A DNA stretch of 64,000 bases from assembly GCA_045638685.1 (NCBI GenBank), contig JAZUBT010000007.1, positions 130,551-194,550 on the forward strand, given 5' to 3'. Position numbers and translations under genes: made by a program. Shown here one piece after another: positions 14,043 to 48,769 of this stretch. The stretch is from Eubacteriales bacterium (lineage in GTDB: Bacteria; Bacillota; Clostridia; Oscillospirales; CAG-272). Each line of letters begins with the position of its first letter. Position 1 is the first letter of the stretch. The notes beneath the pieces were generated by a model, which saw only the letters and a list, made by a program, of their open reading frames with translations, was not told where the DNA came from and did no database searches.

Positions 14043-15357
14043 TTATATAATATTTTTCAATATATTAATGTGAATTTTTTTAGAAGTGTTATTATCTCCT
14101 CTATTCTTTGCTCGTTGCTGTTCGTCCGAAAGCTCTTGGTCATAAATCTCTGCCGCTTCTTGAACATCACCGCCTAAAACCTCGACAACATCTAAAAATG
14201 CTTCTCTCGATATGTTTGTCATATCAATAGGATTAGTTATATTAAGGTAATAGGCTTCGGTTTTTCCGTCCTTAAATTCGGGGAAGTTTTCCATATACTC
14301 GGCATCATCGGAGAAGAAGAAACCGAGATATGTGTTTGAGTCTCCTGTCGCTTCACCCTTTTTGGATTTATCAAAAACAGTAAAATCGTTTTTAGTGGTA
14401 TTGGTACACCTTGAGCAGATTTCCGTTAGGATCTACCGCCTTACTATCCTTGAAATACTCTCTCTGTCCTTTTGAAAGGCTGTTGCCTTCGCTATCTGCA
14501 GAGAGAGAATATTTTATAGAATTTTCCTTATCCCTCTTGACATTTGTTTCCTTTTGTGATATACTATCTTTCGCAAGGTTGATAATGCGAGACACCTCGG
14601 AAGGTTGGATTCCTATGGTGGCAAGCATTTGTTCAGCCTTGTTTTTGTTTATTGCAACAAGCTTTCCCTCTTCGGCACTTCTTGTTATTCTATCAACAAA
14701 ACCATCCAACGGATACACGCTTTTTACTTGATTTACTGTATCGCTTTCCATTGGTTGATTATTCCACACGCCCGCTATAACATAAGATGCGTTACCTCTT
14801 GTATCGTCCATTTCATAGGAAGTAATAATAGAAACTTTTTCACCGTTATCAATAAGCAACGAAGCTTCGGACAGATGTTGCGGCATCTTCTCAAAAAATT
14901 CATACGGAACAGCGTGAGAAGAATAATTTTTGTTTTTTGCCGATTGTCTTCGTGATTTTCTATAATCACTTTGATTCATAGCAAACGGAGCATTTGAGAA
15001 TCCCGCTGCCTGTAATTGCCCGGAAGGATTGCCGATATATAAGGAATTACTTCCGTTCATCTGTCCTTTTTCTATCGAATTTAACTGACTGTTGTATGAC
15101 ATTTTGGAAGTCTTGCTAATAGAATACTTGGTTTCGGTAGGTAACCTTGCACCGTTCCTATACGCATCTTCAAAGAGCTTCTTAACCTTTTCAAGCTGTC
15201 TTGCTTCTTTACTTCCCTTTGTTGCTACCTTGCAGAAATATTTAATCTTATCAAAGAGCCAATTAAATACGTTTCTGTCCTTTGCCGAAAGACCGAAAAC
15301 GAAATCCTCGTCAGTAAAGAGATAATCTCCCTTTGCTTCTTCATTTTCGGGTAAATT
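14043..15357 (-). pseudogene. 5'- and 3'-truncated, frameshifted fragment of a large mobile-element polyvalent-type protein
   Basis: The frame of ORF 14392..15102 stays open upstream to 15357 with no start codon; an in-frame TAG lies at 15358-15360. The frame breaks near 14395-14405: one frame reads ...NGNLLKVYQYH*, and the +1 frame continues CTNTTKNDFTVFDKSKKGEATGDSNTYLGFFFSDDAEYMENFPEF... into ORF 14043..14294. Confidence 0.6.
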
Positions 15358-15603: not shown

Positions 15604-16389
15604 TTATTCCGCCTTCGTTTCCTCGGATGACTTGTTTTCCTTAGGAGCTTTTTTAACTTTTTCGATTATGCGCTTAAAAAATCCTGGGCGGCGACCGGAA
15701 CCGGAATGTTTGTAGTAATAATAGTGAGTGTATTTACCTTTAGAGCCGATGTGTCCGGTTGCATCGGTATAGTTAAGTATTGCTCCCAATATCTGGCAGT
15801 TTGCTTTTTCAAACTGCTTTTTTACGTTGTATGCGATACGGTATTTTATCTTTCCGGCAGAAATGACTATTATCGCACCATCGCACTGCTTAGCAACAAC
15901 AGCAGCGTCTATAACCGCTCCGAGCGGAGCAGTATCTACGATAATATAATCGTATTCCTCGCGGCACTTTTCAAGAAGAATCTTAAATTTATCGGTATAG
16001 AAAAGCTCTACGGGGTTCGGAGGATATTTTCCCGCAAGAATCATGTGTAAATTCTCATACTGCGTTTCAAATACGATATCCTCAATGCTTGCCTGATTAG
16101 TAAGATACTGGCTAAGTCCAAGAGGAGAGCTTGCTTCAATCTTGTATCTTACCGCCATAACCGATTTTCTCATATCGGTATCTATAATCATTACCTTTTT
16201 TCCTATTTCCGAAAGAGATTTTGCAAGCTCTACCGAAATAAGGCTTTTTCCTTCATTTTGAAGGCAGCTTGTTACCGCTATGCACTTTATATCGGGACCG
16301 CTGAACTGAAAGTTGGTTCTAAGTGTTTTAAACGCCTCGCTCGTTCTGTACGATCCGGTGGTTACGGAAGTTATTTCTATCTTATTCAT
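15604..16389 (-). CDS. CpsD/CapB-type bacterial tyrosine kinase (BY-kinase catalytic subunit)
   Basis: P-loop TSCLQNEGKS and C-terminal tyrosine cluster KYTHYYYYKHS. I place the start at ATG 16389 (MNKIEITS..., GAGGA RBS 5 nt upstream) rather than the track start at 16467. Confidence 0.8.
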   Translation of the reverse strand: MNKIEITSVTTGSYRTSEAFKTLRTNFQFSGPDIKCIAVTSCLQNEGKSLISVELAKSLSEIGKKVMIIDTDMRKSVMAVRYKIEASSPLGLSQYLTNQASIEDIVFETQYENLHMILAGKYPPNPVELFYTDKFKILLEKCREEYDYIIVDTAPLGAVIDAAVVAKQCDGAIIVISAGKIKYRIAYNVKKQFEKANCQILGAILNYTDATGHIGSKGKYTHYYYYKHSGSGRRPGFFKRIIEKVKKAPKENKSSEETKAE

Positions 16390-16566
16390 AATATCCTCAC
16401 AATCCGCCGCGATAAGCGGCAACTTAAAATTCAAACGAGTTTGCCGTGTTTTGCCACCGCAAAACAAAAGGGTCTTAGCCTTTTAGGTAAACTCATACGT
16501 GAAATCCCCGTGTTTTGCGCATACAAAACACAAAAAGCTTTGTCTGCTGTTATCTTTATTATCCGA

Positions 16567-17307
16567 TTAATATCTGCCGTAATATCTGTATTCGTCAGCA
16601 AGCTTTCTCGCCTTTAACACGTTGGGTATTACACCGAGAACGCTTATTCCAAGACGGGATTCTATATCCTTTCTTGTGGAAATCTTATCCTCAAGAACGT
16701 AAATTATCGCGATTACAAGAGCCGCAAGGCAAGCTCCGAGGAAGGCAAAAACAACTGTATTTCTTAAAACGTTAGAGCCGATAAGCGTACCCTTCGCCGC
16801 AGGCGACAGCTTGCTTGCGGGAACATTGGTGATTTGGGGAAGCTCGTCATAAGCCGCATCGCGAACTGCGTTTGCAATAATTTGTGCGTTTTCGGGAGAG
16901 TCCCCGGTAACGGTTATCCAAAGAATACGGGTGTTTTCAGGAGAAACTACCGAGATTTTTCTTGATAAGCTTGAAGCATTCGCAGCAATTCCCTTCTCCT
17001 TTATAGCTGCGGAAACCTTGTCAAGAACTATCGGATCTTTAATAAGAAGCTCGTAGTCCTTAGCGATGTTGGTTGCTATCTGAACCGAGGTTACAGCAGC
17101 AGGATCCTGCTTGTTTCCGATTATATACAAGCCGACTTTTGTCTGATAGGCCGGGGTGTATGTTTTGTTAAAATAAATGAAAGCTCCTACTCCCGCAATT
17201 ATTGCAGCAAGAATTACTATCCATATTTTCTTCATAACAGAAAGAAGCATTCCGGGAATATTTATTTCCAACGCTTTTTCTTCGTTTCTTACCTCTGCGA
17301 TATTCAT
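16567..17307 (-). CDS. Wzz/CpsC-type chain-length determinant (BY-kinase transmembrane activator)
   Basis: 246 aa with two TM helices flanking an extracytoplasmic domain. Directly abuts the cpsB-like gene. Confidence 0.75.
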   Translation of the reverse strand: MNIAEVRNEEKALEINIPGMLLSVMKKIWIVILAAIIAGVGAFIYFNKTYTPAYQTKVGLYIIGNKQDPAAVTSVQIATNIAKDYELLIKDPIVLDKVSAAIKEKGIAANASSLSRKISVVSPENTRILWITVTGDSPENAQIIANAVRDAAYDELPQITNVPASKLSPAAKGTLIGSNVLRNTVVFAFLGACLAALVIAIIYVLEDKISTRKDIESRLGISVLGVIPNVLKARKLADEYRYYGRY

Positions 17308-18021
17308 TTAATTATTCTCCTTTATAAATAAATTATTTGCATTTGACCAAAATAACGGCTCAGCCACAGCCTCTCCGTATTTTTTTAAAACCATTCTGTA
17401 CGCTTCGGAAAAGCTATCATATGCCGCCGATACGTGAGCGTCCGATGAAACAATGCTTGCAAGACCTCGCTTTATAAGAGATTTCACAAAGCGCGATGTA
17501 CTCCAGCCGTTAATCCCTATAACGCTTTCGGCATTTACCGTTATGATCGCTCCCATCTGCTTTAGCTGCAACAGCTTCTTTTTCGTTATGTTTTTATACC
17601 GTTCAACATGCGCCAAAACGGATTTATATCCGAGCGATGTCATTCCGAGAACCGTTTCTGCCATATCGTGAAACGTAACGTTTACCGAAAACTCCAGCAA
17701 AACCTTATTATTTCCGGCGACAAACTTCCGTTTGTTTTCGATTAAAAAGCTCGGAACTCCGGAAAAAACGTATATCTCGTTCCACTTGTAAAGCCTTAAA
17801 TCCGGATATTTTTCTTTTGAATACTCAACGAGCTCGTTAAACGCTTTTTCCTCGCCTTTTGGATTATATTCAAACAGTTCAGGGTTATAGTGTGGCGTAA
17901 CGCAAATGACTCTTACTCCGTTTGCATATGCATTGTCAAGCATTTTTAACATAACGGACTTGTTTTTCGCACCGTCGTCAACTCCATAGAGAATATGACT
18001 GTGAACATCCGCTAAAAACAT
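17308..18021 (-). CDS. CpsB/CapC-type PHP-family phosphotyrosine protein phosphatase
   Basis: 237 aa. N-terminal DVHSHILYGVDDGA and later SSDAHV, matching PHP metal-binding motifs. Confidence 0.8.
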   Translation of the reverse strand: MFLADVHSHILYGVDDGAKNKSVMLKMLDNAYANGVRVICVTPHYNPELFEYNPKGEEKAFNELVEYSKEKYPDLRLYKWNEIYVFSGVPSFLIENKRKFVAGNNKVLLEFSVNVTFHDMAETVLGMTSLGYKSVLAHVERYKNITKKKLLQLKQMGAIITVNAESVIGINGWSTSRFVKSLIKRGLASIVSSDAHVSAAYDSFSEAYRMVLKKYGEAVAEPLFWSNANNLFIKENN

Positions 18022-18220: not shown

Positions 18221-20968
18221 ATGCCAAAAAATTTTAATGGTCTCACCGAGGAGGAGGCGCTCCTTTCCCAAAAAGAACACGGATATAATCATCTTACCGT
18301 AAAAAAGGGAACCTCTTTTTTCAAAAAACTGATAAACAATTTTGGAGATCCGATAATCAAAATCCTTCTTTTTGCGCTTTTAATTACCGTCTTGCTTCCC
18401 GGTGGCGAGGGCTCGGTTTTTGAAACTGTCGGAATTGCCGCTACAATACTTATTTCAACCTTTGTTTCAACACTGAGTGAGCACGGCAGCGAAAAAGCGT
18501 TTCGACGTATGCAAAACGAGGCAAGGGTGCAGAAGTGCACTGTTATCAGGGGCGGTATGCATACCGTTATACCGATAGAAAACGTGGCTAAGGGTGATGT
18601 CGTTTGCCTTTTTTCCGGCGAAAAAATCCCTGCTGACGGAGTTATTTTAGACGGCTCCGTTTCCTGCGACGAATCGGCTCTGACCGGCGAAAGCAGGGAA
18701 ATTGAAAAAAACGCTTCGGACAGTCCGGAAAAAGAGGGAGATTTGGTTTTCAGAGGCAGCACGGTTACCGCCGGTGAGGCTATAATGTCGGTTACTGCTG
18801 TCGGAGACGGTACTTACTACGGTCATATGGCAAGTGAAGTTCAGTACGACAGCGGTAAAAGTCCCCTTAAAGAGAGACTTTCCGTTCTTGCCAAAACACT
18901 CAGCCGTTTTGGATATTTCTGCGCTGCCTGTGTCGCTGTTGTTTATCTTATAAACGCGTTTTTCCTCACTCCCTCATTCGTTTTCTCCCCTACCGGTATT
19001 TTTACCGAAATAATCCATGCCGCTACTCTTGCCGTTTCCGTTGTGGTTGTTGCAGTTCCGGAGGGACTGCCCATGATGATAACCGTGGTTCTTTCCTCCA
19101 ATATGCTTCGTATGCAAAAGGAGCATATTCAGGTCAGAAAACCCGTGGGTATAGAAACTGCGGGAAGTATAAACATACTCTTTACAGACAAAACCGGCAC
19201 TCTCACCTACGGTACTCCGACGGCGGCGGGTTATATAACCGGCGATTTGTCTAAAGCCGGACGCTGCTCGGACCTTTCAAAAAGCATTCGCTTTTTGCTC
19301 GGCGCTGCCGCGGTACTAACCTCCGACTGCATTATTGAAAATCCGTTTTCTCATAAATCAAGGCGCGTTCTCGGCGGAAATACCACCGACCGCGCAGTGC
19401 TTAACGGATATTTCTCCGCGGGAGAATATCCGAAAGGTCCTACGCCAATATGTAAGCTAAGCTTTGACAGTAAGATAAAGCTCGCCGCCGTCGCCGCGGA
19501 CGTTTCGGGAGTGCCGGACTCGGAAATAAAGCTTGGTAGCACCCTTACTTTCATAAAGGGCGCGCCCGAAATTCTTTTAGAAAAATGCACCGGGTACTAC
19601 GCGCCCGACGGAACTGTCAAAAAAATAAACAAGGCGCCCCTAAAAGCAGAGCTTGACAAAATCACCGCAAAAGGAACCAGAGTAATAGCGGTTGTAACGT
19701 CCGATGCCGAGCCTTTCGCCGTAGGAGGGCTGATTAAAGAGGTAAAGGAAAGCGAAAGCCCAAGACTTGCTCCTCTTTTTTCAAATGTCAACTTTGTATG
19801 CTTCATAGCTATAAAAGACGAGCTTCGCAGAGAATCTCCGAAAGCTATAAAGACGTTAACCGATGCAGGTATTCAGGTTGTAATGGTAACCGGAGACAGC
19901 TCGGCAACTGCGACAGCCATCGCAAAAGAGGCGGGTATATTAAAATCTCATGAAGACAACACGGTTATTGAAAGCTCGGAGCTTAATAAAATGAGCGACA
20001 GTGAGGTTGCCCGTATTCTCCCGCGTCTTCGTGTTGTTGCAAGAGCCCTTCCAACGGATAAAAGCCGTCTCGTAAGAATAGCTAAGGAATCGGGGCTTAT
20101 AACCGGAATGACGGGAGACGGAATAAACGACGCTCCCGCTTTAAAGCACGCCGACGTCGGGTTTGCTATGGGAAGCGGTACAGAGGTTGCCAAGGAAGCG
20201 GGCGACATTATAATAACCGATAATAACATTGCCTCAATAGTAAAAGCCGTGCTTTACGGAAGAACAATCTTCCGTTCTATACGTAAGTTTATAGTTTTCC
20301 AGCTTACAATGAATCTCTCCGCTGTCGGAATAAGTATAATAGGACCCTTTATCAGCTTTGAAAACCCGGTTACAGTTATTCAGATGCTATGGATAAATAT
20401 AATAATGGATACGCTTGCGGCTATTGCCTTTGCGGGAGAAGCACCGAGACGGTTCTTTATGAAGGAGCCCCCTATCCCCAAAAACGAGCCTGTGCTAAAC
20501 GGAGATATGATAACTAAAATTTTCGTTATGGGAACATATACCGTTATGCTCTGCCTTTTCTTCCATCAAAGCGCGTTTATCCGTAATATTTTCGGAAATG
20601 CCGACAACGCTTCCGCTTTTCTGTCCGGATTTTTTGCCTTATTCGTTTTTTCGGGAATTTTTGGAGCGTTCAATGCCCGCGCATCAAGACTTAATATTTT
20701 TTCCGGACTTCCCGAAAACCCCGTGTTTATAACAGTAATTTCCCTTATTTTCTCCGTACAGATGGCTATTATCTACTACGGTGGTGAGATTTTCCGCTCA
20801 GCCCCCCTAACCTTTTCACAGCTTAGAATTGTAATTTTACTTGCCTTTACAGTAATCCCCGCCGGCAGAATTTTGGAAATTATAATGAAGGCGGGTAAAA
20901 AGGAAATAAAAATTAAAAGCGGAGAACCGTCCATTCTTACTGCTAATTTTCACGTCGTAAGAAAATAA
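18221..20968 (+). CDS. P-type (PMCA/SERCA-like) calcium-translocating ATPase
   Basis: 915 aa. Motifs DKTGTLT (phosphorylation site), MVTGDS, TGDGINDAPALKHADVG. N-terminal cation-ATPase-N-like segment and about 10 TM helices. Confidence 0.85.
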   Translation: MPKNFNGLTEEEALLSQKEHGYNHLTVKKGTSFFKKLINNFGDPIIKILLFALLITVLLPGGEGSVFETVGIAATILISTFVSTLSEHGSEKAFRRMQNEARVQKCTVIRGGMHTVIPIENVAKGDVVCLFSGEKIPADGVILDGSVSCDESALTGESREIEKNASDSPEKEGDLVFRGSTVTAGEAIMSVTAVGDGTYYGHMASEVQYDSGKSPLKERLSVLAKTLSRFGYFCAACVAVVYLINAFFLTPSFVFSPTGIFTEIIHAATLAVSVVVVAVPEGLPMMITVVLSSNMLRMQKEHIQVRKPVGIETAGSINILFTDKTGTLTYGTPTAAGYITGDLSKAGRCSDLSKSIRFLLGAAAVLTSDCIIENPFSHKSRRVLGGNTTDRAVLNGYFSAGEYPKGPTPICKLSFDSKIKLAAVAADVSGVPDSEIKLGSTLTFIKGAPEILLEKCTGYYAPDGTVKKINKAPLKAELDKITAKGTRVIAVVTSDAEPFAVGGLIKEVKESESPRLAPLFSNVNFVCFIAIKDELRRESPKAIKTLTDAGIQVVMVTGDSSATATAIAKEAGILKSHEDNTVIESSELNKMSDSEVARILPRLRVVARALPTDKSRLVRIAKESGLITGMTGDGINDAPALKHADVGFAMGSGTEVAKEAGDIIITDNNIASIVKAVLYGRTIFRSIRKFIVFQLTMNLSAVGISIIGPFISFENPVTVIQMLWINIIMDTLAAIAFAGEAPRRFFMKEPPIPKNEPVLNGDMITKIFVMGTYTVMLCLFFHQSAFIRNIFGNADNASAFLSGFFALFVFSGIFGAFNARASRLNIFSGLPENPVFITVISLIFSVQMAIIYYGGEIFRSAPLTFSQLRIVILLAFTVIPAGRILEIIMKAGKKEIKIKSGEPSILTANFHVVRK

Positions 20969-21083: not shown

Positions 21084-21293
21084 TTACTTTCCGACTGCTT
21101 CAAGACGGCGTCTGAACTTATCAACGCGTCCGCCTGCGTCAACGAACTTCTGCTTTCCGGTAAAGAACGGATGGCACTTAGAGCAGATATCTACGCGGAT
21201 CTCGGAACCCTTTGTGGAACGGGTTACGAAGGTCTCTCCGCATGCGCATATTACCTTTGCTTCAACGTAATCGGGATGAATTGCTTCCTTCAT
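21084..21293 (-). CDS. rpmE: 50S ribosomal protein L31 (Cys-containing type A)
   Basis: 69 aa: [22 protein letters not shown]...[27 protein letters not shown]. Confidence 0.95.
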
Positions 21294-21493: not shown

Positions 21494-21928
21494 TTATTTT
21501 TTATCGTTTTTAAAAAGCTTTTTTATCCGGCTACGAATAAAAATAATTCCGGCCCTTAGGTAGAAAAAGTCGCAAATTAAATGAACGTATAACCTATATT
21601 TAAAGCTTCTCTCGGAAATGTACTTTTCGTTTTTGTAATAACCGTTCATTACGCCTACTATCCATTCCTTTGGCACCCTTTCACGGCTATATCTGTTGTC
21701 TCCGCACGTTATAACAATATCTTTTTTGACCTTTAATATCCTATGAAGCACGTATTGTCCGTCAGGACGTCTATAAAGCGGCAGGTCGTATCTTTTCAAA
21801 GGACGGGTGGGCCTTACTATCTCTACAATATTTTTTCTGTTCCTTAGCATCGGCTCCATGCTGTCTCCAACAGTCGTTTGAAAGTGTTTTCCGTTTTCTT
21901 CTAAAAGCTCTTCAATACTTTTACTCAT
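21494..21928 (-). CDS. S24/S26 (LexA / signal-peptidase-like) serine peptidase with C-terminal hydrophobic helix
   Basis: 144 aa. GDSMEPML motif near the N-terminus and a C-terminal hydrophobic segment LYVHLICDFFYLRAGIIFI. Its start overlaps the PqqD-like gene end by 8 nt. Confidence 0.7.
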   Translation of the reverse strand: MSKSIEELLEENGKHFQTTVGDSMEPMLRNRKNIVEIVRPTRPLKRYDLPLYRRPDGQYVLHRILKVKKDIVITCGDNRYSRERVPKEWIVGVMNGYYKNEKYISERSFKYRLYVHLICDFFYLRAGIIFIRSRIKKLFKNDKK

Positions 21929-22187
21929 CGAGCAGACCGGCTTTTCTTATTTTTTCTATAATATTTCGCACGTCCCCCGTCGCCGTTTCCTCGTCAACGT
22001 CATACCTTTCAAGTATAGCTTCAACAAGCTGCCTTTCGGTTTTATCCTCGGTAAGCTGACGGAATATAAAATCCGCCGTCTTGTTATTACGGATAAATCC
22101 GTTAAACAGCTTACTCGACTCTCCTGTGGCAACGGCTATATATCCGTCTCCTGCCTTCTCCATTACAACTCCGTTTTTAAGCTTCAT
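21921..22187 (-). CDS. PqqD-family protein (RiPP recognition element-like)
   Basis: 88 aa. Pattern FIRNNKTADFIFRQLTEDKTERQLVEAILERYDVDEETATGDVRNIIEKIRKAGLL is typical of PqqD-like peptide chaperones. Confidence 0.75.
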   Translation of the reverse strand: MKLKNGVVMEKAGDGYIAVATGESSKLFNGFIRNNKTADFIFRQLTEDKTERQLVEAILERYDVDEETATGDVRNIIEKIRKAGLLDE

Positions 22188-22261
22188 GTTTTTCGTTTGT
22201 TCCTTTCGCTACTTTATATTAACGTTACCGAATAGCTCTCAATATGCTACTGAACATCAGT

Positions 22262-22966
22262 CTATCCGAATATTCCCTTCTGCGCAACCTGCGCCGCCTC
22301 AACGGAAATATTACATTTCATTTTATACATAGATACGCTTTCTGCAAAAAGATTAATAAATCTTAAAGCGGCTACCGCTCCTGCCGGCTCGCTCGGACGG
22401 TGTGTCTGTGCAAAAAGCACTTGATATCCTTCGTTAAACGACAGCTTTTCGAGACTGTTTTCCACCGCACGCTCAATAACTACCACCGCTTTAACTTTTA
22501 CGCTTGTATTTGTTTCTATTCCGTGCTTACCGCACCACGGAGTACCGTACACGTATATTCCGTCGTCCTTTACCTTAAGCAAAGGCTTATCGTCGTTTAT
22601 AACGGTAACACGCTCGCCGAAGCCTTCGCGCCACAGTCTCGTATGGGTAGATTTTCCAGTTCCGCTCGGCGCTGTGAAAAGCACCCCTGCTCCGTCAAAC
22701 GCAATCGCGGAGCAATGAAAAAGAAAGGTATTTTCCTTTGCAAGCAGCGCACATATTTTTCTGTAAATCGCAAGGCTTTCAAGATATGCCGGCGGATATT
22801 TTATCTGCTCCGTGTCCTCTTTCAGTATCTCTTCCTTTGTAACCTCTACAGCAGTAGCGTTTACTGCAAGCTCCTCGGAGACGCTATAACCTTCGCACAG
22901 CTTTTTTACGTATTCGAATTTGTTTTTTACCGCAAAAACGCGGTCAGCTATTTTAAGAAAAAACAT
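22262..22966 (-). CDS. HPr-kinase-C-terminal-like P-loop protein (HprK-related kinase family)
   Basis: 234 aa. GAGVLFTAPSGTGKSTHTRLW resembles the HprK/PEPCK-like P-loop. GGAGG RBS upstream. Confidence 0.6.
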   Translation of the reverse strand: MFFLKIADRVFAVKNKFEYVKKLCEGYSVSEELAVNATAVEVTKEEILKEDTEQIKYPPAYLESLAIYRKICALLAKENTFLFHCSAIAFDGAGVLFTAPSGTGKSTHTRLWREGFGERVTVINDDKPLLKVKDDGIYVYGTPWCGKHGIETNTSVKVKAVVVIERAVENSLEKLSFNEGYQVLFAQTHRPSEPAGAVAALRFINLFAESVSMYKMKCNISVEAAQVAQKGIFG

Positions 22967-23003
22967 TACCGCTCGCCTCCGTTATAATTTAACTTATATG
23001 TTT

Positions 23004-23032: not shown

Positions 23033-23186
23033 GGGATATTTGTAAATTTTTCGAACGTGTGCCGATAACCTCGCGCTGTTCCCTATCACGTTGCCCAACA
23101 CCTTCTCCATAACTCAGCGTTGCTTACTCTACTGCAAGTGTTAAATAAGGCTCCCGCTTACTCACTACTGCATATGTCAAAAAACC

Positions 23187-23247
23187 TTTATTCATATTGC
23201 AAATATCAAAAAAAGAACTGTTTATTCATATTGCAAATATCAAAAAA
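23187..23247. repeat. perfect 27-bp tandem direct repeat (two copies, 34-bp period)
   Basis: tttattcatattgcaaatatcaaaaaa occurs at 23187-23213 and again at 23221-23247. Confidence 0.95.
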
Positions 23248-23292
23248 TTCGGGGCGTAGTTTGCTTTAAACTGCGCCCCGAATCGGTTTTTT
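23247..23292. terminator. bidirectional terminator downstream of the 1687-aa gene
   Basis: attcggggcg (23247-23256) pairs with cgccccgaat (23274-23283). T-runs follow on both strands. Confidence 0.75.
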
Positions 23293-23322: not shown

Positions 23323-26300
23323 TTACTCGGCTTCGACAGAAGCAAGGAACGCTTCGACAGCTTCGTTATATTTGTATATAGCTCTCATAAGGTTTTTCTT
23401 CATAAGGCTCTCGTTGTCGGTAGCGTTATTGGATACCCACTGGTTCCTTGCAACCGCAACCGCGCTGGTTTTAAGAGAAATTCCAAATCCGCTTTTATGC
23501 ATTGCGGTAATGGTGATCTCTTTATCAAGCTCGCTTGCATTAACCTCAGCCTCAACAGCAAGAAGTCCGTTTTCGGTCAACTGCGCTTTAACCTCTTCTC
23601 CGTTTACATAGAACTTAAATTCAGAAGGAACGGTTCCGGGAACGAAGTTAACCTTAATATTCATCGCCTCACCAAAGCTGAACGTAATATTTTCAGAGGT
23701 GTTTTCAAGCCATATATAGGTGCTTTGAGTGTTATTTTCAATAAATTCCCAACGTATGTCGCAATCAGAGGGGAACAATACCTTATCTCCATCGATCTCG
23801 GCTTCGAGCTCGGAATCCTCTATTTCGGTGGGATTACCTTCGCCGTAAACAAGCTTGTTTACGTTTTTCGTATATTCGTCAAACGCCTTTACAAGGTTAA
23901 TTACCTCTTCGGTAAATACCTCGTCCGGAGTAGAAAGTCCCGCAACGTATTTAATGTAATCTTCGATCTTGTACTCGTAGGAAGAGCCGTAGTGTCCGTC
24001 TGCTCTTACGTAGCGAATCTTTACAACAGAGTCAGTAGCGTTAGGAGCTACCGAAATTGCAACCTTTCTATAAGTCTTTTCGCCAACGGTTACCTGCTCA
24101 AGCTCGGTAATAGGAGTTTTCACGGTTGTCTCACCGATAAATGCGCTTCTGCGTCCTATTTCAATCTCACCCTCAGTGCCGGTTACGTCAAGATAGAATA
24201 TAACGTTTACACTCTTTCCTAACGAAATGCTATATCCGTAAACAGAGGTTACTCCGTCTGCCTTAACGCCATTTTCACAGCAGGTTGCTATACCCTTTAC
24301 GTGGGTTTCGTGTATATTGGGGTTAAGTTCCGTTTTACGGGTTTTCTCTTTTCCACACTTTTTGCAGGTGGACTTTTCTTCTCCTTCTGTCTTACAAGTT
24401 GCAAGCTTGGTTACAACATATTCACCGTAATCGTGAGCATTCGCATCTGCGCAGATAACTTTGCCGTATCCGTCAATATCAAAGCTGTAAACCGCTCCGG
24501 TATTAGGATCCTCGAACCTGCCGTTCTGGACAGAAACGCCGTTTGCATCGGTGTAAAGATAAACCTTTTCTCCGTCCTTTTCTCCTGCCTCAACAAGTCC
24601 GGATTTGATAACACCGTTTTCAAACATCTTATATGAGTAAATCGCATCGCCGAGCTTATTAAATCCGTTCAATACGCGCTCGATACCGTTTGTCTTGCCG
24701 ATAAGCTTGCCATCAGTATCAAACTTGTACCATACTCCGTTAACAGAGTAAATTCCGGTTACAAGCTTTGCGGTATTCGGGGTTGCGTAGTAATCGCCCG
24801 CATCAGGCTCTGCGCCGCTATTATTCTCGTCAATCCAGCCGACCTGCGCAACACCATTCTTATAATAGTATCCGTCTGCGGAAATACCGTCCTCCACTCC
24901 GGCATTAATTACAAGTCTTACAACCTTTAAAAGCTTTATCGAGTCAACCTTAACACCGGTTATATAACTGCTGTTAGCCGCGGTGTCAGAAATAAGACCG
25001 AGCCAGTCAATATCGTACTTTCCGTTATCTACAACCGGTATTTCAAGAGTATTCCAGCCGGCAGAAAGCTCTGCAAGGCTTCCGCTCATTGCTTCTGTAA
25101 CGTTTGCGGTTCTGACGTAGAAGGTGTCGCCGTAGCTCTTGCCAACAACGTCGTCGGTATCGTAGTAAACTACGTCTATTTCTCCTCCGCGGCCGTTTTC
25201 AACCGTGAAGGCTACCTCTGCCGCCGAAGCTACCTCCGCGCCTTCGGGAAGAACAGCGTTGTCAACAAAGTAGGTTCCGTCGCCAAATTTATAGTTATTT
25301 TCTTCAAGCCACGTTACCTTATAGAAGCGCTGAGTCTCACCGAGATAAATCTTAAACGCCGAGGTGGGCTTATTCGTTTCGGGGAGATAAATATTAAGTC
25401 TTATAAATTCATAATCGTTCTGCGTGAAGTAAAGGTTATTAAAAGTTACCGCGAATATTTCCTGTGCATTTGCCTTATTTCCAAGCACTCCGTATCCAAA
25501 GGATCCGTCTTGTACGCCGTTAAAGCTAACGGTGTACTCAGCATCCGTGCTTACGGAAGCATCATCACTGCTAACCGTGTGAACAACACCGTTCTCGTTA
25601 GCCATATAGTTTTTTCCACCCTCGTCAGCAAAAGTAACAAATCCGTTTCTCGCTGCAACCGGAAGTCCTTTATCGTAGTATCTCATTACTCCGTTTTCGG
25701 AAACGAAGCCCTGTCTAATATCGGACGTCTTTACAGCCGTGAGCGTTTGGTCGCTTGTAAGAGCAATCTCTCCACCAACCATCGTGTAGAACTGCTGCGG
25801 CTTCGCGGAAAGATACATATATATATCTTTAACGAAAACCGAGCTGTCCGCGTTTTTGAACGAAAGGTATTTTATGGTTTCAATGTGTGTCATATCATAC
25901 CCTGACGTAAAGGTGGAAACGAGAACGCCGTTCGCATATACGTCTGCGGTCATTTTCTCGCTGCTACCGGTTTTCGGGGTATGAATTACAACGGACAGTC
26001 TGGTAAATTCGTTTTTGCTGAGCTTAAAGAGCTTCACTGTAGAGTTATTATAATCGTAAACCCAGCCTTCTTTGTCAAGACGAAGGAGCGAGAAATATTT
26101 ATTTCCGCTATCGCCGTTTATCTTTCCTATTATATCAAAGAGCTGAACCTCCGTTGCCTGAACCTCAGACAAGCGCTCGTCAAGCATAAGGTCGAGCTCA
26201 AGAACAACGTCGGCATCCTTCTGGTATTCCGTAGGAAGTGCAATTTGCGACCAAGAGTTGGTGTCGGCGCCGGCATCCGCATCGTCATAGAACGAGGTGT

Positions 26301-28386
26301 AAAGAACCGCGTCATTACCGCCAATCTTTACGGGCTTCGTTATACTGTCTCTGTCGATACCGAAATAAGCACTCGTTGCGCCGGAGGCAGTATAAAGAAC
26401 CGTTCCGTCAGCAGAAGCTACAAAGAAATTCTCCGTTCCGGTGTGCACATAGTCAACGTAAGGAGCGTAGGGAGTAAACACAAGTCCGTCGCTCTCTTTG
26501 GTTGCGGAGCCGTTAAATCCAACGATATAGTTTTCACCGTCAGCCTCAAAGCTCTTCTTTTTAAAGGTTGAGTCTCCATTGTAGTAGCGGGTAATTCCGC
26601 TTACCTCGTGGAGTCCTTCGGGCTTGTTTTCGAATACGTCGATTCTGTCGGTGCCGTAGTCGTCGTAGGCGCTGGTTGTAATGTAAGAATATGATTTAAT
26701 AAGAAGATCCTGCTCCGAAAGGGCGTTAGTAGCAGCATCTACTCCTATGAAATCAATTCTCGACAGATGATAGTCGGTGGAGCTGTAGCCGTCTGATTTT
26801 CCCGTTATTGCGTCGGAAAAATTAATACCGAATGACATAGTGGCCTTAAGCTCATAATTAACCTTGCCGCCGCTGTCCTCGGTGCCTATGTAGAAAATTG
26901 CCGTCGGAAGCAGGGTGTTGGTTACAACGTCAACCTTTATGTAAGTATATGTATCGCTGTTAATTTTTCCAAGGGTAACCGTGCCGCCGGAGTAAACCTG
27001 AGCCTTAACCGTTCCGTCTCTAAGGAGCTGTACGTATATCTCGGCAGTACCTGCTTTACCTATAGTGCGTATGAGCTTGTAGTAGTCATAGTTCTTCGGA
27101 CCGGTAGAACCTGCCTTTACCGCTATACTTGCGGTAAAGTTAGTTCCCTTTTCAAAAAGCGTATCGCCGTTGTTTGCGATGGTAACCGATTTACCGGCGG
27201 TTTGTCCTGCGGGCTGGCGAACCTCTATCGCGTCTCCCTTGCCGTCGCCATCCTCGTCAACGAATCTAAGAGAAGGAGAATTGTCGCTCCAGAGTGAGTT
27301 GCTATCCCAAAAGCTTAATCCGTTCTTGTTGAGCATATAGGCGCGGAACTGAGAGCCTCCGTCGGCACCACGGTCGCTTGCATTCATAACAGCGCCTTTG
27401 GCAGCCGTAACGGTATTGGTAAAGGGCAGACGCGCACCGATAAGGAAGTTATCGAAATACATTCCCTTATGACCGGTTCTGTTGGTATTAATCTGGGTTT
27501 GATAAAGTCTTATTTCGTAAATCGGTATCGTCTTAACGGTATATACGTCGCGGTTCATTGTCGCCGCGTCGTTTGCGTCGTTCATCTCATTAACTTCATT
27601 CGAATTAAACAATGCAATTCCGTCGGGAGTAACGAGAACGTCGTTAAGATAAACGTAGTATTTATTCTTTAACCTGTCGGTTGCGACAGCTATTCTGGTA
27701 TATTCGTCCTCCGAAAGATATCCGAGTAGATTTTCGGGAGAATAGTTATCAGAGGTGTAAAGTCCTCCGACCGCGCTTAAATACACAACGGTTTTGGCTT
27801 TTGCGCTTCCTCCCGGTCTATATACAAAGGAGATCAGCGCGGCCTCGGAAACATTCTTTCCGCCCATCTTCATGTCCATACTTATAAAGAGGTCGTGAAC
27901 CGCATCTCCCTTTTGGTTAGAAAAGGTGTCGGAAAGACCGTGCATCAAATCTATGTAGTTATACTTGGAATTATCGTTTGTGTCGCTATAACCAAAATAA
28001 AGCGCCTTGTTTCCGTCCGACTCGGTTACAACGCTGTACGACTGTCTGAAATTAGAAAGCCTGATACAGTCCGTTCCGTTTGACGTAAAGTCCGCGTACA
28101 CACCGCTGGCGGCGGCACTGTCGGCAGCACCCTTCGGAAAGGTGTACGTCGTCGTACTGCCCTCGTCAAAGGTATTCCATTTTTCAAAGGAATGGAACAT
28201 TTTGAGGTCAAGGCCTTCTTTTTCGAACTCAGTCTGAATCTCGGTAAGAGTTCTTTCCTCGTACTGCGCCTGTGCATTTGAACCGGCAGAATACGGTCCG
28301 TCTAACGCAAAGAGCGAAAGAGGAAGGATTCCCACAACCATCAAAAACGTAAGCAGCATAGCAAGAATTCTGGTTTTTGCTTTCAT
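23323..28386 (-). CDS. 1687-aa secreted surface protein with cell-wall/glucan-binding-like repeats
   Basis: Signal peptide MKAKTRILAMLLTFLMVVGILPLSLFA. Aromatic-rich putative cell-wall-binding repeats (GWIDENNSG...GIYSVNGVWYKFDTDGKLIGK, YLYTDANGVSVQNGRF...). A Cys module ATCKTEGEEKSTCKKCGKEKT. No recognisable catalytic motif. Confidence 0.6.
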   Translation of the reverse strand: MKAKTRILAMLLTFLMVVGILPLSLFALDGPYSAGSNAQAQYEERTLTEIQTEFEKEGLDLKMFHSFEKWNTFDEGSTTTYTFPKGAADSAAASGVYADFTSNGTDCIRLSNFRQSYSVVTESDGNKALYFGYSDTNDNSKYNYIDLMHGLSDTFSNQKGDAVHDLFISMDMKMGGKNVSEAALISFVYRPGGSAKAKTVVYLSAVGGLYTSDNYSPENLLGYLSEDEYTRIAVATDRLKNKYYVYLNDVLVTPDGIALFNSNEVNEMNDANDAATMNRDVYTVKTIPIYEIRLYQTQINTNRTGHKGMYFDNFLIGARLPFTNTVTAAKGAVMNASDRGADGGSQFRAYMLNKNGLSFWDSNSLWSDNSPSLRFVDEDGDGKGDAIEVRQPAGQTAGKSVTIANNGDTLFEKGTNFTASIAVKAGSTGPKNYDYYKLIRTIGKAGTAEIYVQLLRDGTVKAQVYSGGTVTLGKINSDTYTYIKVDVVTNTLLPTAIFYIGTEDSGGKVNYELKATMSFGINFSDAITGKSDGYSSTDYHLSRIDFIGVDAATNALSEQDLLIKSYSYITTSAYDDYGTDRIDVFENKPEGLHEVSGITRYYNGDSTFKKKSFEADGENYIVGFNGSATKESDGLVFTPYAPYVDYVHTGTENFFVASADGTVLYTASGATSAYFGIDRDSITKPVKIGGNDAVLYTSFYDDADAGADTNSWSQIALPTEYQKDADVVLELDLMLDERLSEVQATEVQLFDIIGKINGDSGNKYFSLLRLDKEGWVYDYNNSTVKLFKLSKNEFTRLSVVIHTPKTGSSEKMTADVYANGVLVSTFTSGYDMTHIETIKYLSFKNADSSVFVKDIYMYLSAKPQQFYTMVGGEIALTSDQTLTAVKTSDIRQGFVSENGVMRYYDKGLPVAARNGFVTFADEGGKNYMANENGVVHTVSSDDASVSTDAEYTVSFNGVQDGSFGYGVLGNKANAQEIFAVTFNNLYFTQNDYEFIRLNIYLPETNKPTSAFKIYLGETQRFYKVTWLEENNYKFGDGTYFVDNAVLPEGAEVASAAEVAFTVENGRGGEIDVVYYDTDDVVGKSYGDTFYVRTANVTEAMSGSLAELSAGWNTLEIPVVDNGKYDIDWLGLISDTAANSSYITGVKVDSIKLLKVVRLVINAGVEDGISADGYYYKNGVAQVGWIDENNSGAEPDAGDYYATPNTAKLVTGIYSVNGVWYKFDTDGKLIGKTNGIERVLNGFNKLGDAIYSYKMFENGVIKSGLVEAGEKDGEKVYLYTDANGVSVQNGRFEDPNTGAVYSFDIDGYGKVICADANAHDYGEYVVTKLATCKTEGEEKSTCKKCGKEKTRKTELNPNIHETHVKGIATCCENGVKADGVTSVYGYSISLGKSVNVIFYLDVTGTEGEIEIGRRSAFIGETTVKTPITELEQVTVGEKTYRKVAISVAPNATDSVVKIRYVRADGHYGSSYEYKIEDYIKYVAGLSTPDEVFTEEVINLVKAFDEYTKNVNKLVYGEGNPTEIEDSELEAEIDGDKVLFPSDCDIRWEFIENNTQSTYIWLENTSENITFSFGEAMNIKVNFVPGTVPSEFKFYVNGEEVKAQLTENGLLAVEAEVNASELDKEITITAMHKSGFGISLKTSAVAVARNQWVSNNATDNESLMKKNLMRAIYKYNEAVEAFLASVEAE

Positions 28387-37673: not shown

Positions 37674-39152
37674 TTAACTAACGTGCATTTCTATCGCTAT
37701 TGTTTTTGAAGCATATAACCATACAAATCCTTTGTAAAAAGAAAAGCCCTGACTTTTGTCAGGACCGTTATTTATCGGGCTGTTAAAGTAGATGTCGATC
37801 TTATCGTTGTAAAGAACTATTTCTTTAACCAATAAGTTTATAGCCATTTCTATTTCACCTTTTAATGCTTCTTTGTAGTATTCTCGAATAATACTTTCCG
37901 GAAGCTTTACGGCGGATTTGCTTTTCTCTATAATTAATTGCCGCTCTAACTCCTCTTGCTGTGTTTCAAGCTCATGTAAACGTTTATTTGTGGTCTTGGA
38001 TACTATACCTTCTTCAATAGCCGACATAATGTTTTCAAGTGCTTTATCGACCTTTGCTTTTTCTTTTTTTAGTGTGTTGACTATAGGATTATCCGTACAA
38101 TAGCTGTCCTGCAATTTAAGTAGACTTTTGACCACTCCGTTAAGCGTTTCAGGTTTTGAAAGCTCTTCAATTATTTTAGTTACAATAGCTTCCTCTAAAG
38201 CTTCCTTTCCAATAACGCCTTGCTTACATCCGTTGTGATACGATTTTATTCCGAGACATTTATAATAACGCTTAACCTCTCCGTTTCTTGCCGTACCGGT
38301 CTCCGCACTTATAGGGTGTCCACAATAACCGCATCTCATTTTATGTCTGAACAGATATACCGTTTTTACGCTGCGTTTACCAAACTTATTCTGTTCCACC
38401 TTTTTTCTCACGGTTTCGTAGGTGTCGGAAGGCACTATCTGAGGATACATATTGTCCACCTTTTCGTCTCCGTGATAATATACCCCCGAATACTTTTCAT
38501 TTTTAAGTATGCCGTATATCGTATTTTTAGCAAACGGCTTTCCGTTATTTTTTATTCCTCTTAAAGTCAAAGCATTTATAATATCCCTAACGTATACCCC
38601 AGCGGAATACTGCTCAAATATGAACCTTACCGTCTCGGCTTTTTCCTCATCTATAACGAGCTTTTTTCCTTCGAGCTTGTAACCGTACAGTATAGCTCCT
38701 CCTTGATAATAGCCTTTGATTCTGTTTTCACGCATACCGCGTTTAACCTTTTGGGAGAGATCTGCGGAATAATACTGCCCTATACCTTCAATTAAGCTTT
38801 CAAGTATTACCCCCTCGGGCGTATCGGGTATATTCTCCATAGCGGACAATACCTTGACTCCGTTTTTTCTCAGCGTATTTTTGTGAATAGTGGCTTCGTA
38901 CTTGTTGCGTGAAAATCTGTCGAGCTTATATACGAGTACGTAGTTCCATTCCTTTCTTGCACTGTCCCTTATCATACGCTGGAAATCGGGACGCATATCG
39001 TTTGTTCCCGTCATAGCTCTGTCAACGTAGGTGGAAAGAATAAGAATGCCGTTTGTCTTTGCATATTCTTCACATACTCTGAGCTGACCTTCAATGGATT
39101 GTTCTGTTTGTGCATCGCTTGAATAACGTGCATAGATTACTGCTGTTTTCAA
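37674..39152 (-). CDS. large serine recombinase
   Basis: 492 aa. Resolvase catalytic N-domain MKTAVIYARYSSDAQTEQSIEGQ, a recombinase domain, a zinc ribbon (CGYCGHPISA...YYKCLG) and a C-terminal coiled coil. Confidence 0.9.
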   Translation of the reverse strand: MKTAVIYARYSSDAQTEQSIEGQLRVCEEYAKTNGILILSTYVDRAMTGTNDMRPDFQRMIRDSARKEWNYVLVYKLDRFSRNKYEATIHKNTLRKNGVKVLSAMENIPDTPEGVILESLIEGIGQYYSADLSQKVKRGMRENRIKGYYQGGAILYGYKLEGKKLVIDEEKAETVRFIFEQYSAGVYVRDIINALTLRGIKNNGKPFAKNTIYGILKNEKYSGVYYHGDEKVDNMYPQIVPSDTYETVRKKVEQNKFGKRSVKTVYLFRHKMRCGYCGHPISAETGTARNGEVKRYYKCLGIKSYHNGCKQGVIGKEALEEAIVTKIIEELSKPETLNGVVKSLLKLQDSYCTDNPIVNTLKKEKAKVDKALENIMSAIEEGIVSKTTNKRLHELETQQEELERQLIIEKSKSAVKLPESIIREYYKEALKGEIEMAINLLVKEIVLYNDKIDIYFNSPINNGPDKSQGFSFYKGFVWLYASKTIAIEMHVS

Positions 39153-46517: not shown

Positions 46518-47450
46518 TTACAAAATCCGTGGTAGTTTCTGCATCATTTCAATTTTATGGTCGAGCATACAGTGGGTGTATCGGTTAAGGGTGATGGATG
46601 CGTTTTGATGCCCCATGATATCGGCAACGGTCTTGATGTCCATTCCGCACTCGATAGCACGGGTAGCAAATGTATGACGCAAGGCATGAAAGTTGAGCTT
46701 ACGCACTTCCGCGCGTTCGGTGAGCTTTTCGAATATGTATTGGTACGAACGGATCGACATTCGTTCGCCTTTTTTATTTTCTACAACGTATTGTGTTTGA
46801 GCGTTTTCATAGTCCTGACGTAGTATATCGGTGATATATTCGGGCAGAGGAATCACTCTGTCCGATGCTTTTGTTTTCGGCGTATCTACGCAAAGCTGCC
46901 ATATCCCGCTTTCGTCCTTTTCTCGATATACAGTTTTCGTTATTTTTATCACGCCACGGTCAAGATCAACATCATTCCACGTAAGCCCCAGCAATTCGCC
47001 TATTCGCAAGCCTGTATAAAGGCAGAGGAGAATACCGTGAAGGCGTTTATCATCGGATCTTGATATTTCTGTTTCAATTGCTCTTTGTTCCTCCACAGTA
47101 AATGCTTCAATTTTCTTTGTTTCTGTCTTTGTACGCCGTACTCTGATGCATGGATTTTCCTCGATATATTCCATATCACAAGCGTATTCAAATGCGAGAT
47201 TAAGGACGGATAGCATCATATTCGTGCTTGTAGCAGATAGCTTTTCACCATTACGAATATTTCCGTCCTTTTTCTGTTGAGTGAGAAATTCTTGAATGTC
47301 CCACCGACTAAGTTCGAATATGTTTCGCTTTCCAAGCATCGGGACTATGTGCATTGTTATAAGTCCTTGGTATCGGCTATATGTCCGCGCCTTGATATGC
47401 TCCTTTTGGTAGATCTCCAGCCATTCGGTAAGTAGTTTTTGTATTGTCAT
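46518..47450 (-). CDS. tyrosine-type site-specific integrase
   Basis: Contains ALRHTFATRAIECGMDIKTVADIMGHQNASITLNRYTH (R...HxxR...Y). N-terminal SAM-like domain. The start is set at ATG 47450 (GGAGG RBS) rather than the track start 47501. Confidence 0.9.
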   Translation of the reverse strand: MTIQKLLTEWLEIYQKEHIKARTYSRYQGLITMHIVPMLGKRNIFELSRWDIQEFLTQQKKDGNIRNGEKLSATSTNMMLSVLNLAFEYACDMEYIEENPCIRVRRTKTETKKIEAFTVEEQRAIETEISRSDDKRLHGILLCLYTGLRIGELLGLTWNDVDLDRGVIKITKTVYREKDESGIWQLCVDTPKTKASDRVIPLPEYITDILRQDYENAQTQYVVENKKGERMSIRSYQYIFEKLTERAEVRKLNFHALRHTFATRAIECGMDIKTVADIMGHQNASITLNRYTHCMLDHKIEMMQKLPRIL

Positions 47451-47659
47451 AATGACCTCCTTGAATTTTGATGATACTATATTGTATCTCAAAATTATCA
47501 CAAAGGTATTAGCAACACAATATCACGACCACTGATGAAAGTCCAGATAACTTTTTGTTAACTCGAAAAATACGTTCCTTTGTATATTGTGACGTAAATT
47601 TTAGTACGCGAAGCATAAAAATTAGCCAATGCAGACATTTCATCGTCAATGTTGGCTTT

Positions 47660-48232: not shown

Positions 48233-48769
48233 TTAATTTATAAAACTGTCAAATACGGGGGTGGCTTTTTGTGTTTCTAATGACGTAAAAGCACATAATT
48301 TCACATCTATATCATAGTCAGGATAATCCGAAACGAACTTGTTGTATGCTCGGCAGCACTGCTTAGTAGATTCAGCAACGGGATTAATTAAATTACCACC
48401 AAAAATACCAGAGCTTATAAGTGGAAAGGAAATGCTGTGCAGTTCATGCTCTTTTAAAACCAATAGAGAGTTGTAATATGCCTCATACAATTCTTTAAAT
48501 GCATTGGGAGTTTCGTAAAAATCAGGGCCGACTGCGTGAATTATAAATTTTGTATTTTGCATTTTAAATGCCGGAGTTATAACCGCTGAACCATCTTTAA
48601 GGGGTGTTTTGCAGGCATTACACGCATCTTGTAGTTCAAAAAGACCTGCTTTTTTAAAAATAACTCCGCAAATACCTCCTCCTGCCAACAAACGCTTATT
48701 GGCTGCATTTACAACTGCGTCAACAGTTTGATCAGCACAGGAAGCATTTAACAATTCAATTTTACTCAT
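48233..48769 (-). CDS. stand-alone Macro-domain protein (ADP-ribose binding/hydrolase family)
   Basis: 178 aa. Motifs DAVVNAANKRLLAGGGICG, IIHAVGP and SISFPLISSGIFGG. Confidence 0.85.
   Translation of the reverse strand: MSKIELLNASCADQTVDAVVNAANKRLLAGGGICGVIFKKAGLFELQDACNACKTPLKDGSAVITPAFKMQNTKFIIHAVGPDFYETPNAFKELYEAYYNSLLVLKEHELHSISFPLISSGIFGGNLINPVAESTKQCCRAYNKFVSDYPDYDIDVKLCAFTSLETQKATPVFDSFIN

Follow-up and report, generated by a model that had tools for sequence, protein, structure and literature searches.

Linear polyphosphorylated peptides (LPPs) are a family of peptides that are made by ribosomes and modified after translation (RiPPs), defined by Popov et al. (Nat Commun 2026;17:6633, PMC13381572), and were discovered through lasso-like clusters carrying an extra archaeal-type signal peptidase. 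Their clusters, described in Bacilli, comprise a precursor (LppA), an HprK-like kinase (LppK), a discrete RiPP recognition element (RRE; LppB), an archaeal-type signal peptidase (LppS), an MsbA-like exporter (LppD) and a nucleoside triphosphate transferase (LppN, PF14907) (PMC13381572). Here we analyse three adjacent genes encoding a kinase (K), an RRE (B) and a peptidase (S) in a 64,000-nucleotide stretch of DNA from a Eubacteriales bacterium (contig JAZUBT010000007.1; hereafter the window). A sequence-only reading of the window had taken this trio for a peptide-modification cassette of a RiPP class that it could not name; the class to which the comparisons point is the LPPs.

In the studied cluster, lppA-K-B-S-D-N of Paenibacillus alginolyticus DSM5050 expressed in B. 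subtilis, LppK adds up to four phosphates to Ser3 of the core. Deletion of lppK abolished the +80 Da series, and deletion of lppS left the leader attached. LppS cuts the leader after F-E-T in a reaction that requires LppB and is lost in S29, H68 or D93 mutants, while residues D70 and N33 of LppB fix the leader Tyr and Pro. The LPP leader follows the pattern YxxPxVLxHQxIxFETxxS (Px9Fx[T/A]), with the precursor encoded within about 5 kb; in Bacilli the precursors reach 200 residues and the cores start with a conserved xQSWNKG (PMC13381572, Supplementary Data 1). Translational coupling of the RRE to a SipW-like peptidase is the hallmark parting LPP from lasso clusters. Bacilli LPP clusters sit in capsule loci and show a history of patchy gain and loss, and the final product and its biological role are still unsettled (PMC13381572). 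HprK-like kinases are also found in the paeninodin and pseudomycoidin lasso clusters of Bacillota, where they phosphorylate the peptide at a Ser (Zhu et al. 2016; Zyubko et al. 2019, PMC6993621).

The kinase, the recognition element and the peptidase

The three open reading frames (ORFs) of the trio coincide exactly in position with those proposed in the sequence-only reading. Together with their predicted expression signals, they are as follows.

22262-22966, minus strand: lppK-like gene (K), 234 residues, predicted P-loop kinase of the HprK/PEPCK fold, Pfam PF27840 (ScmC)
21921-22187, minus strand: lppB-like gene (B), 88 residues, predicted discrete RRE of the PqqD fold
21494-21928, minus strand: lppS-like gene (S), 144 residues, predicted archaeal/endoplasmic reticulum (ER)-type, SipW-like S26 Ser-His leader peptidase carrying hydrophobic helices at its C-terminus
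23032-23004, minus strand: predicted sigma-70-like promoter, TTGTCT-17-TATAAT, a consensus match only (10 of 12 positions in a consensus scan)
22974-22978, minus strand: GGAGG ribosome-binding site, 8 nucleotides before the K start codon

K and B are separated by 74 nucleotides (22188-22261) and B and S overlap by 8 (21921-21928), with S starting inside the lppB-like gene. This arrangement, the motifs GAGVLFTAPSGTGKSTHTRLW and GDSMEPML in the encoded proteins and a predicted promoter ahead of the trio had all been reported from the sequence alone, and all were recovered here.

A profile of Clostridial S homologues matched the published LppS sequence (E 4e-11), and direct comparison of S with LppS by BLASTP returned 23% identity (E 2.7e-6); the LppS and LppB sequences were taken from Supplementary Data 1 of PMC13381572. 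Residues S23, H62 and E83 of S align with the catalytic S29, H68 and D93 of LppS, and these three residues, together with D77, were invariant among 31 S homologues. At the general-base position S has, instead of Lys, an invariant His that forms part of an LHR motif, as in ER/archaeal S26 peptidases and in LppS (H68). Searches against NCBIfam matched sigpep_I_arch (E 9.6e-5) and SipW (E 0.01), and the Pfam Peptidase_S24 match remained below threshold (E 0.022; 14.9 bits against a cutoff of 23.3). The S24/LexA Ser-Lys assignment made in the sequence-only reading was rejected on that score and on the invariant His, and S is instead classed as an archaeal/ER-type S26 peptidase of the SipW-like Ser-His subtype. 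The AlphaFold2 (AF2) model of S, with a predicted local distance difference test (pLDDT) score of 92.3, found its best folds in the PDB among LexA, lambda cI, UmuD', SpsB and SipA (clan SF; E 4e-3 to 2e-2), and places C-terminal hydrophobic helices at residues 109-143 that probably hold the protein at the membrane. That the serine peptidase acts as the leader peptidase of an RRE-dependent pathway had been suggested from the sequence, and such a role has been experimentally shown for its homologues.

B matched the Pfam PqqD family above its gathering cutoff (E 1.8e-14), and the closest NCBIfam models were lasso-peptide PqqD chaperones. The profile of Clostridial B homologues also matched published LppB (E 3e-9); identity to LppS and LppB is only about 23-24%. 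The columns corresponding to the leader-holding residues N33 and D70 of LppB were conserved in Clostridial B. Judged by these profile matches, B is a PqqD-type RRE, as had been recognised in the sequence-only reading.

The family of K is large, with 5675 matches in a database search, and all 120 of the matches listed carried a precomputed assignment to PF27840. NCBIfam returned weak matches to ScmC (E 1.6e-4) and to HprK_rel_B/A. The AF2 model of K (pLDDT 93.4), compared with the PDB using Foldseek, had ATP-PEPCK and HprK/P as its top matches (E 2e-6 to 1e-5), and two motifs, Walker A (SGTGKST) and NDDKPL, were invariant among 27 K homologues. By its model, K is a P-loop protein of the HprK/PEPCK fold, which agrees with the HprK-like assignment first made from the letters. 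Sequence searches of the PDB with K, B and S returned nothing significant; the best match was that of B to TbiB1 (E 0.11), and the LppB structure 9X8Z was not among the matches.

Related cassettes and their partner genes in Clostridia

A set of 84 non-redundant loci was assembled from exact-protein look-ups (7 loci) and a scan of species-representative genomes (80 loci), in which 573 stretches were confirmed for the kinase family. The loci, some of which end early at contig ends, were annotated with purpose-built profiles. They originate mostly from Ruminococcus, Oscillospiraceae, Lachnospiraceae and other Clostridia of gut and rumen. K, B and S occurred together in 49 of the 84 loci, and an exporter (D) was present in about 40; besides D, the wider cassette includes a nucleotidyltransferase (N, PF14907). 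The main gene combinations were these.

K-B-S-D-N (the modal order): about 23 of 84 loci
K-B-S-D: 8 of 84 loci
K-B-S-N: 6 of 84 loci
K-B-S only: 9 of 84 loci
K-B: 8 of 84 loci
K alone: 10 of 84 loci

No other gene family recurred near K in more than 6 of the 84 loci. An asparagine-synthase-like gene was found near K in 3 of them and a radical-SAM/SPASM gene in 4, and because of this rarity the cassette is not regarded as part of a lasso or sactipeptide cluster. The trio is accordingly conserved as a unit across Clostridia, its kinase is HprK-like and the loci lie outside lasso and sactipeptide clusters, three points on which the sequence-only reading had staked its proposal. Its description of the cassette as minimal needs revision: the trio is a reduced form of a larger cassette in which exporter, nucleotidyltransferase and precursors are normally present.

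Three classes of gene recur upstream of the kinase. Class (a) consists of small peptides of 31-50 residues, with 39 distinct sequences beside Clostridial cassettes, often in tandem. They share a near-invariant leader, MKEvYEtPEMEVVeFetEDVITTS, which retains the YxxP RRE-binding motif and often F-E-T, and which is followed by a short acidic variable tail. These precursor genes lie up to 7-10 kb from K (L059, L034).

L023:9259; L076:9348; L089:9248 and 9924; L085:2368-3146 (six copies): class (a) ORFs
L086:923-1271; L001:4978-5073; about 25 other loci: further class (a) ORFs

Among loci with enough flanking sequence, the presence of a leader peptide differed with the composition of the cassette.

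Full cassettes (D and N): leader peptide in 11 of 16 loci
D or N only: 7 of 10 loci
K-B-S only: 1 of 7 loci
K, K-B or K-S: 2 of 10 loci

Comparison of the class (a) peptides with NCBIfam returned no family, and a full-text literature search with EDVITTS-type strings yielded nothing relevant. No mention was found in the literature of this leader, or of the peptide, lipoprotein and large-protein classes described here.

Class (b) comprises lipoprotein-like proteins of 130-230 residues, rich in Ser, Thr and Glu, whose extreme C-terminus reads (I/V)ELP(F/I)(I/V)Pxx. The same tail closes many of the small peptides, and it co-varies within a locus, with IELPVIPI in L014, (K/E)LPFIPA in L030 and ELPFVPA in L023, each in both genes. 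This co-variation suggests, at the level of sequence, that lipoproteins and peptides have a common binding partner.

L005:5586-5990; L013, L014, L023, L030, L038, L039: class (b) genes, ending 4-25 nucleotides before the kinase gene
L054, L073, L076, L079, L087, L089: further class (b) genes, ending 4-25 nucleotides before the kinase gene

Class (c) is formed by large secreted proteins of 300-1936 residues with variable bodies and a common C-terminal domain of about 215 residues that belongs to no Pfam family. Wherever both genes could be checked, the gene directly after a class (c) gene encoded a class (a) peptide, and this also held for pairs 7-10 kb away from the kinase (L059, L034).

Window, 23326-23985; L023:3377-9187; L077:508-3711; L089:5135-9184; L059:863-2770; others: proteins with the class (c) domain

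The window instance of this domain belongs to the giant gene that flanks the trio upstream, and the immediate neighbourhood of the trio is as follows.

23323-28386, minus strand: giant secreted protein gene, 1687 residues, signal peptide, no Pfam family; upstream flank of the trio
23247-23283, minus strand: intrinsic terminator of the giant gene, a hairpin with 16-nucleotide arms followed by a T-run
21084-21293: rpmE, downstream flank of the trio, with its own extended -10 promoter

Residues 1468-1687 of the giant protein (nucleotides 23326-23985) match the class (c) domain profile end to end. The domain has diverged: a first-round phmmer search with it reached, outside the clade of the window, only a protein of L050 (E 1.2e-5), and iterative profile searching extended this to about 20 full-length C-terminal matches (E 1e-18 to 1e-59). 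A search of a 5.8-billion-protein database with the domain returned one homologue and no Pfam family, and a phmmer search of all locus ORFs with the full-length protein returned orthologues only. The order EF-P, giant gene, K, B, S, rpmE was identical in all fetched clade relatives. The sequence-only reading had named both flanks correctly; its treatment of the giant surface-protein gene as incidental does not stand, since the C-terminal domain recurs beside these cassettes. On the strength of the profile search and of this consistent gene context, we infer that the giant protein belongs with the peptide-maturation system. As a transcription unit it is set apart from the trio by its terminator, as read from the sequence.

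Some loci carry additional genes. Within a few kb of the kinase homologue, four loci have a radical-SAM/SPASM-like gene (L059:7321-8631 and three others) and three have an asparagine-synthetase-like gene (L081:4944-6761 and two others); such loci may be hybrid or neighbouring RiPP clusters. In L001 (6723-7442), and also in L002-L004, a membrane gene of the TraX family (acyltransferase-like) is located between the kinase and RRE genes, which hints at an extra modification of the peptide. The TraX-bearing cassette is an abundant gut variant, indexed in 466 blocks of the collection and seen on 246 contigs.

Substrate of the trio and alternative explanations

The reading that we favour, and hold to be probable, is that the trio forms the catalytic core of an LPP-type RiPP maturation pathway belonging to a Clostridial branch, with its precursor most likely supplied in trans. 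The trio shares with the LPPs an LppS-type peptidase, an adjoining discrete RRE with a Tyr-type pocket and an HprK-like kinase; the exporter LppD, the transferase LppN and a precursor with the canonical leader were not found in the window, and it is for this reason filed as a reduced Clostridial variant and not as a full LPP cluster. The absence of exporter, transferase and precursor alike is also what leads to the proposal that the gene for its precursor lies at another place in the genome. That idea, raised already in the sequence-only reading, fits both the local absence of a leader and the single leader-bearing case among the seven reduced K-B-S loci. The precursor is probably, to judge by the related loci, a peptide of class (a) with its characteristic leader.

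In such a pathway, B would bind the Tyr-x-x-Pro motif in the leader of the ribosomal precursor, and K, with ATP, would phosphorylate a Ser or Thr that is conserved in the EDVITTS stretch, just after the leader. B would then present the leader-core junction to S, which would remove the leader. The cleavage and phosphorylation sites of the Clostridial peptides are proposed by analogy: if cut after F-E-T as in Paenibacillus, the core would start with EDVITTS, in parallel with the xQSWNKG of Bacilli cores.

Several observations weigh against this reading. The roles of RRE, kinase and peptidase are proven in the Paenibacillus homologues only, and are ascribed to the Clostridial proteins by homology. 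K is linked to LppK through its fold, its gene context and the published description, and the third catalytic residue of S is Glu, not Asp as in LppS. The few Clostridial peptidases in the published set fall into separate network clusters outside the LPP cluster, their RREs are classed as "others" and their precursor is unassigned (PMC13381572). In the Clostridial leader the F sits 7 residues after the P, not 10 as in the published motif (Y-x-x-P-x6-F-x-x-EDVITTS versus Y-x-x-P-x9-F-E-T-x-x-S), so that these peptides escape the published Px9Fx[T/A] pattern. Neither the exporter D profile nor the nucleotidyltransferase N (PF14907) profile matched any window ORF of at least 25 residues, and D, N and a precursor were likewise absent from the 16-20 kb fetched around orthologous trios. 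Searching all six-frame segments of the window and the orthologous loci with the Clostridial leader profile returned nothing better than E = 1.

Further searches for a local substrate gave similar results. When the window and 11 loci were searched in six frames with a regular expression for the published motif, [YWF]xxP-x9-F-x-[TAS], chance matches alone resulted, and no class (a) peptide or class (b) lipoprotein was found in the window or in the orthologous loci L008-L012.

The absence of a small precursor nearby also speaks for the first alternative, in which the trio acts on the adjacent giant protein or on another full-length protein, the RRE recognising a segment of it, the kinase phosphorylating it and the peptidase processing it. 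A precedent exists in Bacillus subtilis SipW, an ER/archaeal-type signal peptidase encoded in the tapA-sipW-tasA operon, which matures the TasA and TapA of its own operon. The synteny of the giant gene with K, B and S is kept in all fetched clade members even though identity between the giant proteins is down to 46-53% (window, L009 and L012), their C-terminal domain is found near these cassettes in about 20 other loci, and in Bacilli LPP precursors can themselves reach 200 residues (PMC13381572). Nevertheless, the leader profile has no match in the giant protein, which has a signal peptide of the ordinary Sec type and a terminator of its own, the trio having a separate promoter. S lacks the N-terminal membrane anchor of housekeeping peptidases of the SipW type and has instead an LppS-like N-terminal helix and an RRE-coupled arrangement. 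Elsewhere, where both could be checked, the large protein comes with a separate small leader peptide, and that peptide is the evident substrate. Taken together, we regard a protein substrate as rather improbable.

The same missing genes (exporter, nucleotidyltransferase and precursor of the modal cassette) could mark the trio as a functionless, decaying remnant of a complete K-B-S-D-N cassette, and the many reduced forms (K only, K-B, K-B-N), like the patchy gain and loss reported for the LPPs (PMC13381572), suggest that gene loss is frequent. Against this, all three ORFs are complete in the window, as they are in three other distinct clade loci (L009, L010 and L012), and homologues of 69-90% identity form 16 sequence clusters. 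Comparison of the window, L009 and L012, which represent three species with 69-88% amino acid identity, gave ratios of non-synonymous to synonymous substitution (dN/dS) of 0.12-0.14 for K and 0.08 for B, the values of 0.08-0.14 being obtained at a dS of at least 1; for S, dN was 0.12-0.18 and dS was saturated. Such low values indicate, from the sequence comparison, a working trio under strong purifying selection. Walker A, the catalytic Ser/His/Glu and the RRE pocket residues are all kept, and the operon has a good predicted promoter, a ribosome-binding site and translational coupling. The low dN/dS of the trio and the identical gene order in relatives make decay quite improbable.

It is highly improbable that the trio is a fragment or accessory of a paeninodin-type lasso cluster or of a SynChlorMet radical-SAM cassette, for which one could cite the HprK-like kinases and PqqD RREs of paeninodin and pseudomycoidin clusters and the best NCBIfam matches (to ScmC, ScmD and the PqqD chaperones of lasso peptides, none of which reaches its cutoff): the related loci seldom carry asparagine-synthase-like or radical-SAM/SPASM genes (see above), translational coupling joins the RRE to a SipW-like peptidase, the LPP hallmark, and no lasso cyclase of the asparagine-synthetase type, B2 transglutaminase-type protease, RiPP-type radical-SAM/SPASM enzyme or ABC exporter was present among the 27 main window ORFs scanned with Pfam, a survey that was not exhaustive and that bears out what had been noted from the sequence alone. 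As assignments, the lasso-cluster fragment was rejected on the lack of cyclase and B2 among these ORFs and on the 3 of 84 loci with an asparagine-synthase-like gene, and SynChlorMet membership on its scores (ScmC 21.1 against 125 bits, ScmD 16.2 against 100) and on the lack of a SPASM enzyme.

Returning to the LPP-type pathway, the C-terminal domain that recurs beside the peptide genes suggests, from sequence, a functional link between this pathway and the adjacent giant protein. The conserved partners of the Clostridial branch suggest a cell-surface role, which bears on what LPPs do. A stronger version, in which the LPP-type machinery of gut and rumen Clostridia is part of a cell-surface system and not a free-standing natural-product pathway, we consider unlikely. 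Under it, the locus-specific (I/V)ELP(F/I)(I/V)P tails common to matured phosphopeptides and lipoproteins might act as ligands of, or anchors to, the conserved C-terminal domain of the large secreted proteins whose genes lie just upstream. The clade of the window would then retain the giant protein and the K-B-S core alone as a still linked set, and the trio would serve a distant peptide, or a non-canonical protein substrate, that displays or regulates the giant protein.

The main lead beyond the window is the Clostridial branch itself, which is large and uncharacterised and has its own leader motif and conserved partners, together with its link to surface proteins. The window adds the case of a maturation core kept although no precursor, exporter or transferase is linked to it, a point of importance to genome-mining rules in which co-localisation is demanded.

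Surroundings of the trio and comparison with known systems

The remaining features of the window are listed below.

23187-23247: two exact copies of a 27-nucleotide direct repeat, TTTATTCATATTGCAAATATCAAAAAA, between the giant-gene terminator and the trio promoter
23158-23184: third copy of the repeat, 70% match, in the same interval
15604-18021: capsule/exopolysaccharide genes (CpsB/CapC phosphatase, Wzz, tyrosine-kinase-like ATPase), about 3.5 kb from the trio
18221-20968: P-type ATPase, between the capsule genes and the trio
14392-15102: phage MuF C-terminal-domain protein, flanked by miaB and the capsule genes, in a local dip of G+C content (0.376 at 14-16 kb)
37674-39152: serine recombinase
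46518-47501: tyrosine integrase
48233-48769: macro-domain protein

The 27-nucleotide repeat has no further copy in the window (0.11 chance matches expected) and was not found in any of the 91 fetched loci; it may be an operator or a recent duplication. An Rfam search around the operon returned no match. The MuF-domain gene may be a phage or toxin remnant. The region from 36000 to 64000 has a G+C content of 0.36-0.41, lower than the 0.42-0.48 of most of the window to the left of it. Besides the recombinase, integrase and macro-domain genes listed above, it holds three giant surface proteins: one of 1607 residues with Listeria-Bacteroides repeats, one of 2079 residues with 13 BspA-type LRR_5 stretches and one of more than 2882 residues that runs off the right edge of the window. 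This region looks like an integrated element or adhesin island.

Among described systems, SynChlorMet (ScmC/ScmD, TIGR04249/TIGR04248) and HPr-rel-A (TIGR04352/TIGR04353) have in common with the trio the pairing of an HprK-related P-loop protein with a PqqD-like chaperone. The trio, however, scores far below their equivalog cutoffs (14 against 200 bits for HprK_rel_A) and lacks the partners ScmE and ScmF. Both systems are bioinformatically defined, and we know of no experiments on them. SipW is of the same Ser-His, S26B-like subtype as S, and both are dedicated to substrates encoded nearby; S, at 144 residues, is much shorter and without a transmembrane anchor at its N-terminus. It is also translationally coupled to an RRE, on which, to judge by its homologue LppS, it would depend for cleavage.

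Lasso clusters share with the trio a discrete PqqD-type RRE ([Y/W]xxP leader), and with the wider cassette a nucleotidyltransferase and an ABC exporter. In contrast to them, the trio has neither a macrolactam cyclase nor a B2 cysteine protease, and its peptidase is a serine enzyme of the signal peptidase I (SpI) type, from which a linear product is expected.

The closest counterpart is the LPP cluster of Paenibacillus, with which the window shares three types of enzyme and their order (HprK-like kinase, discrete RRE, archaeal-type SpI peptidase). LppS and LppB have homologues in S and B, with catalytic and leader-binding residues kept, and neither system has a cyclase. Counterparts of lppA, lppD and lppN were not found in the window, whereas the MsbA-like exporter and the PF14907 nucleotidyltransferase are common to the LPPs and to the Clostridial relatives of the window. 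Capsule genes lie near both, in the window as CpsB, Wzz and the tyrosine kinase (15604-18021) and in Bacilli as published (PMC13381572). To this shared core the Clostridial loci add lipoproteins with ELPFVP-type tails and large secreted proteins with a common C-terminal domain, neither of which is mentioned for the LPPs of Bacilli (PMC13381572).

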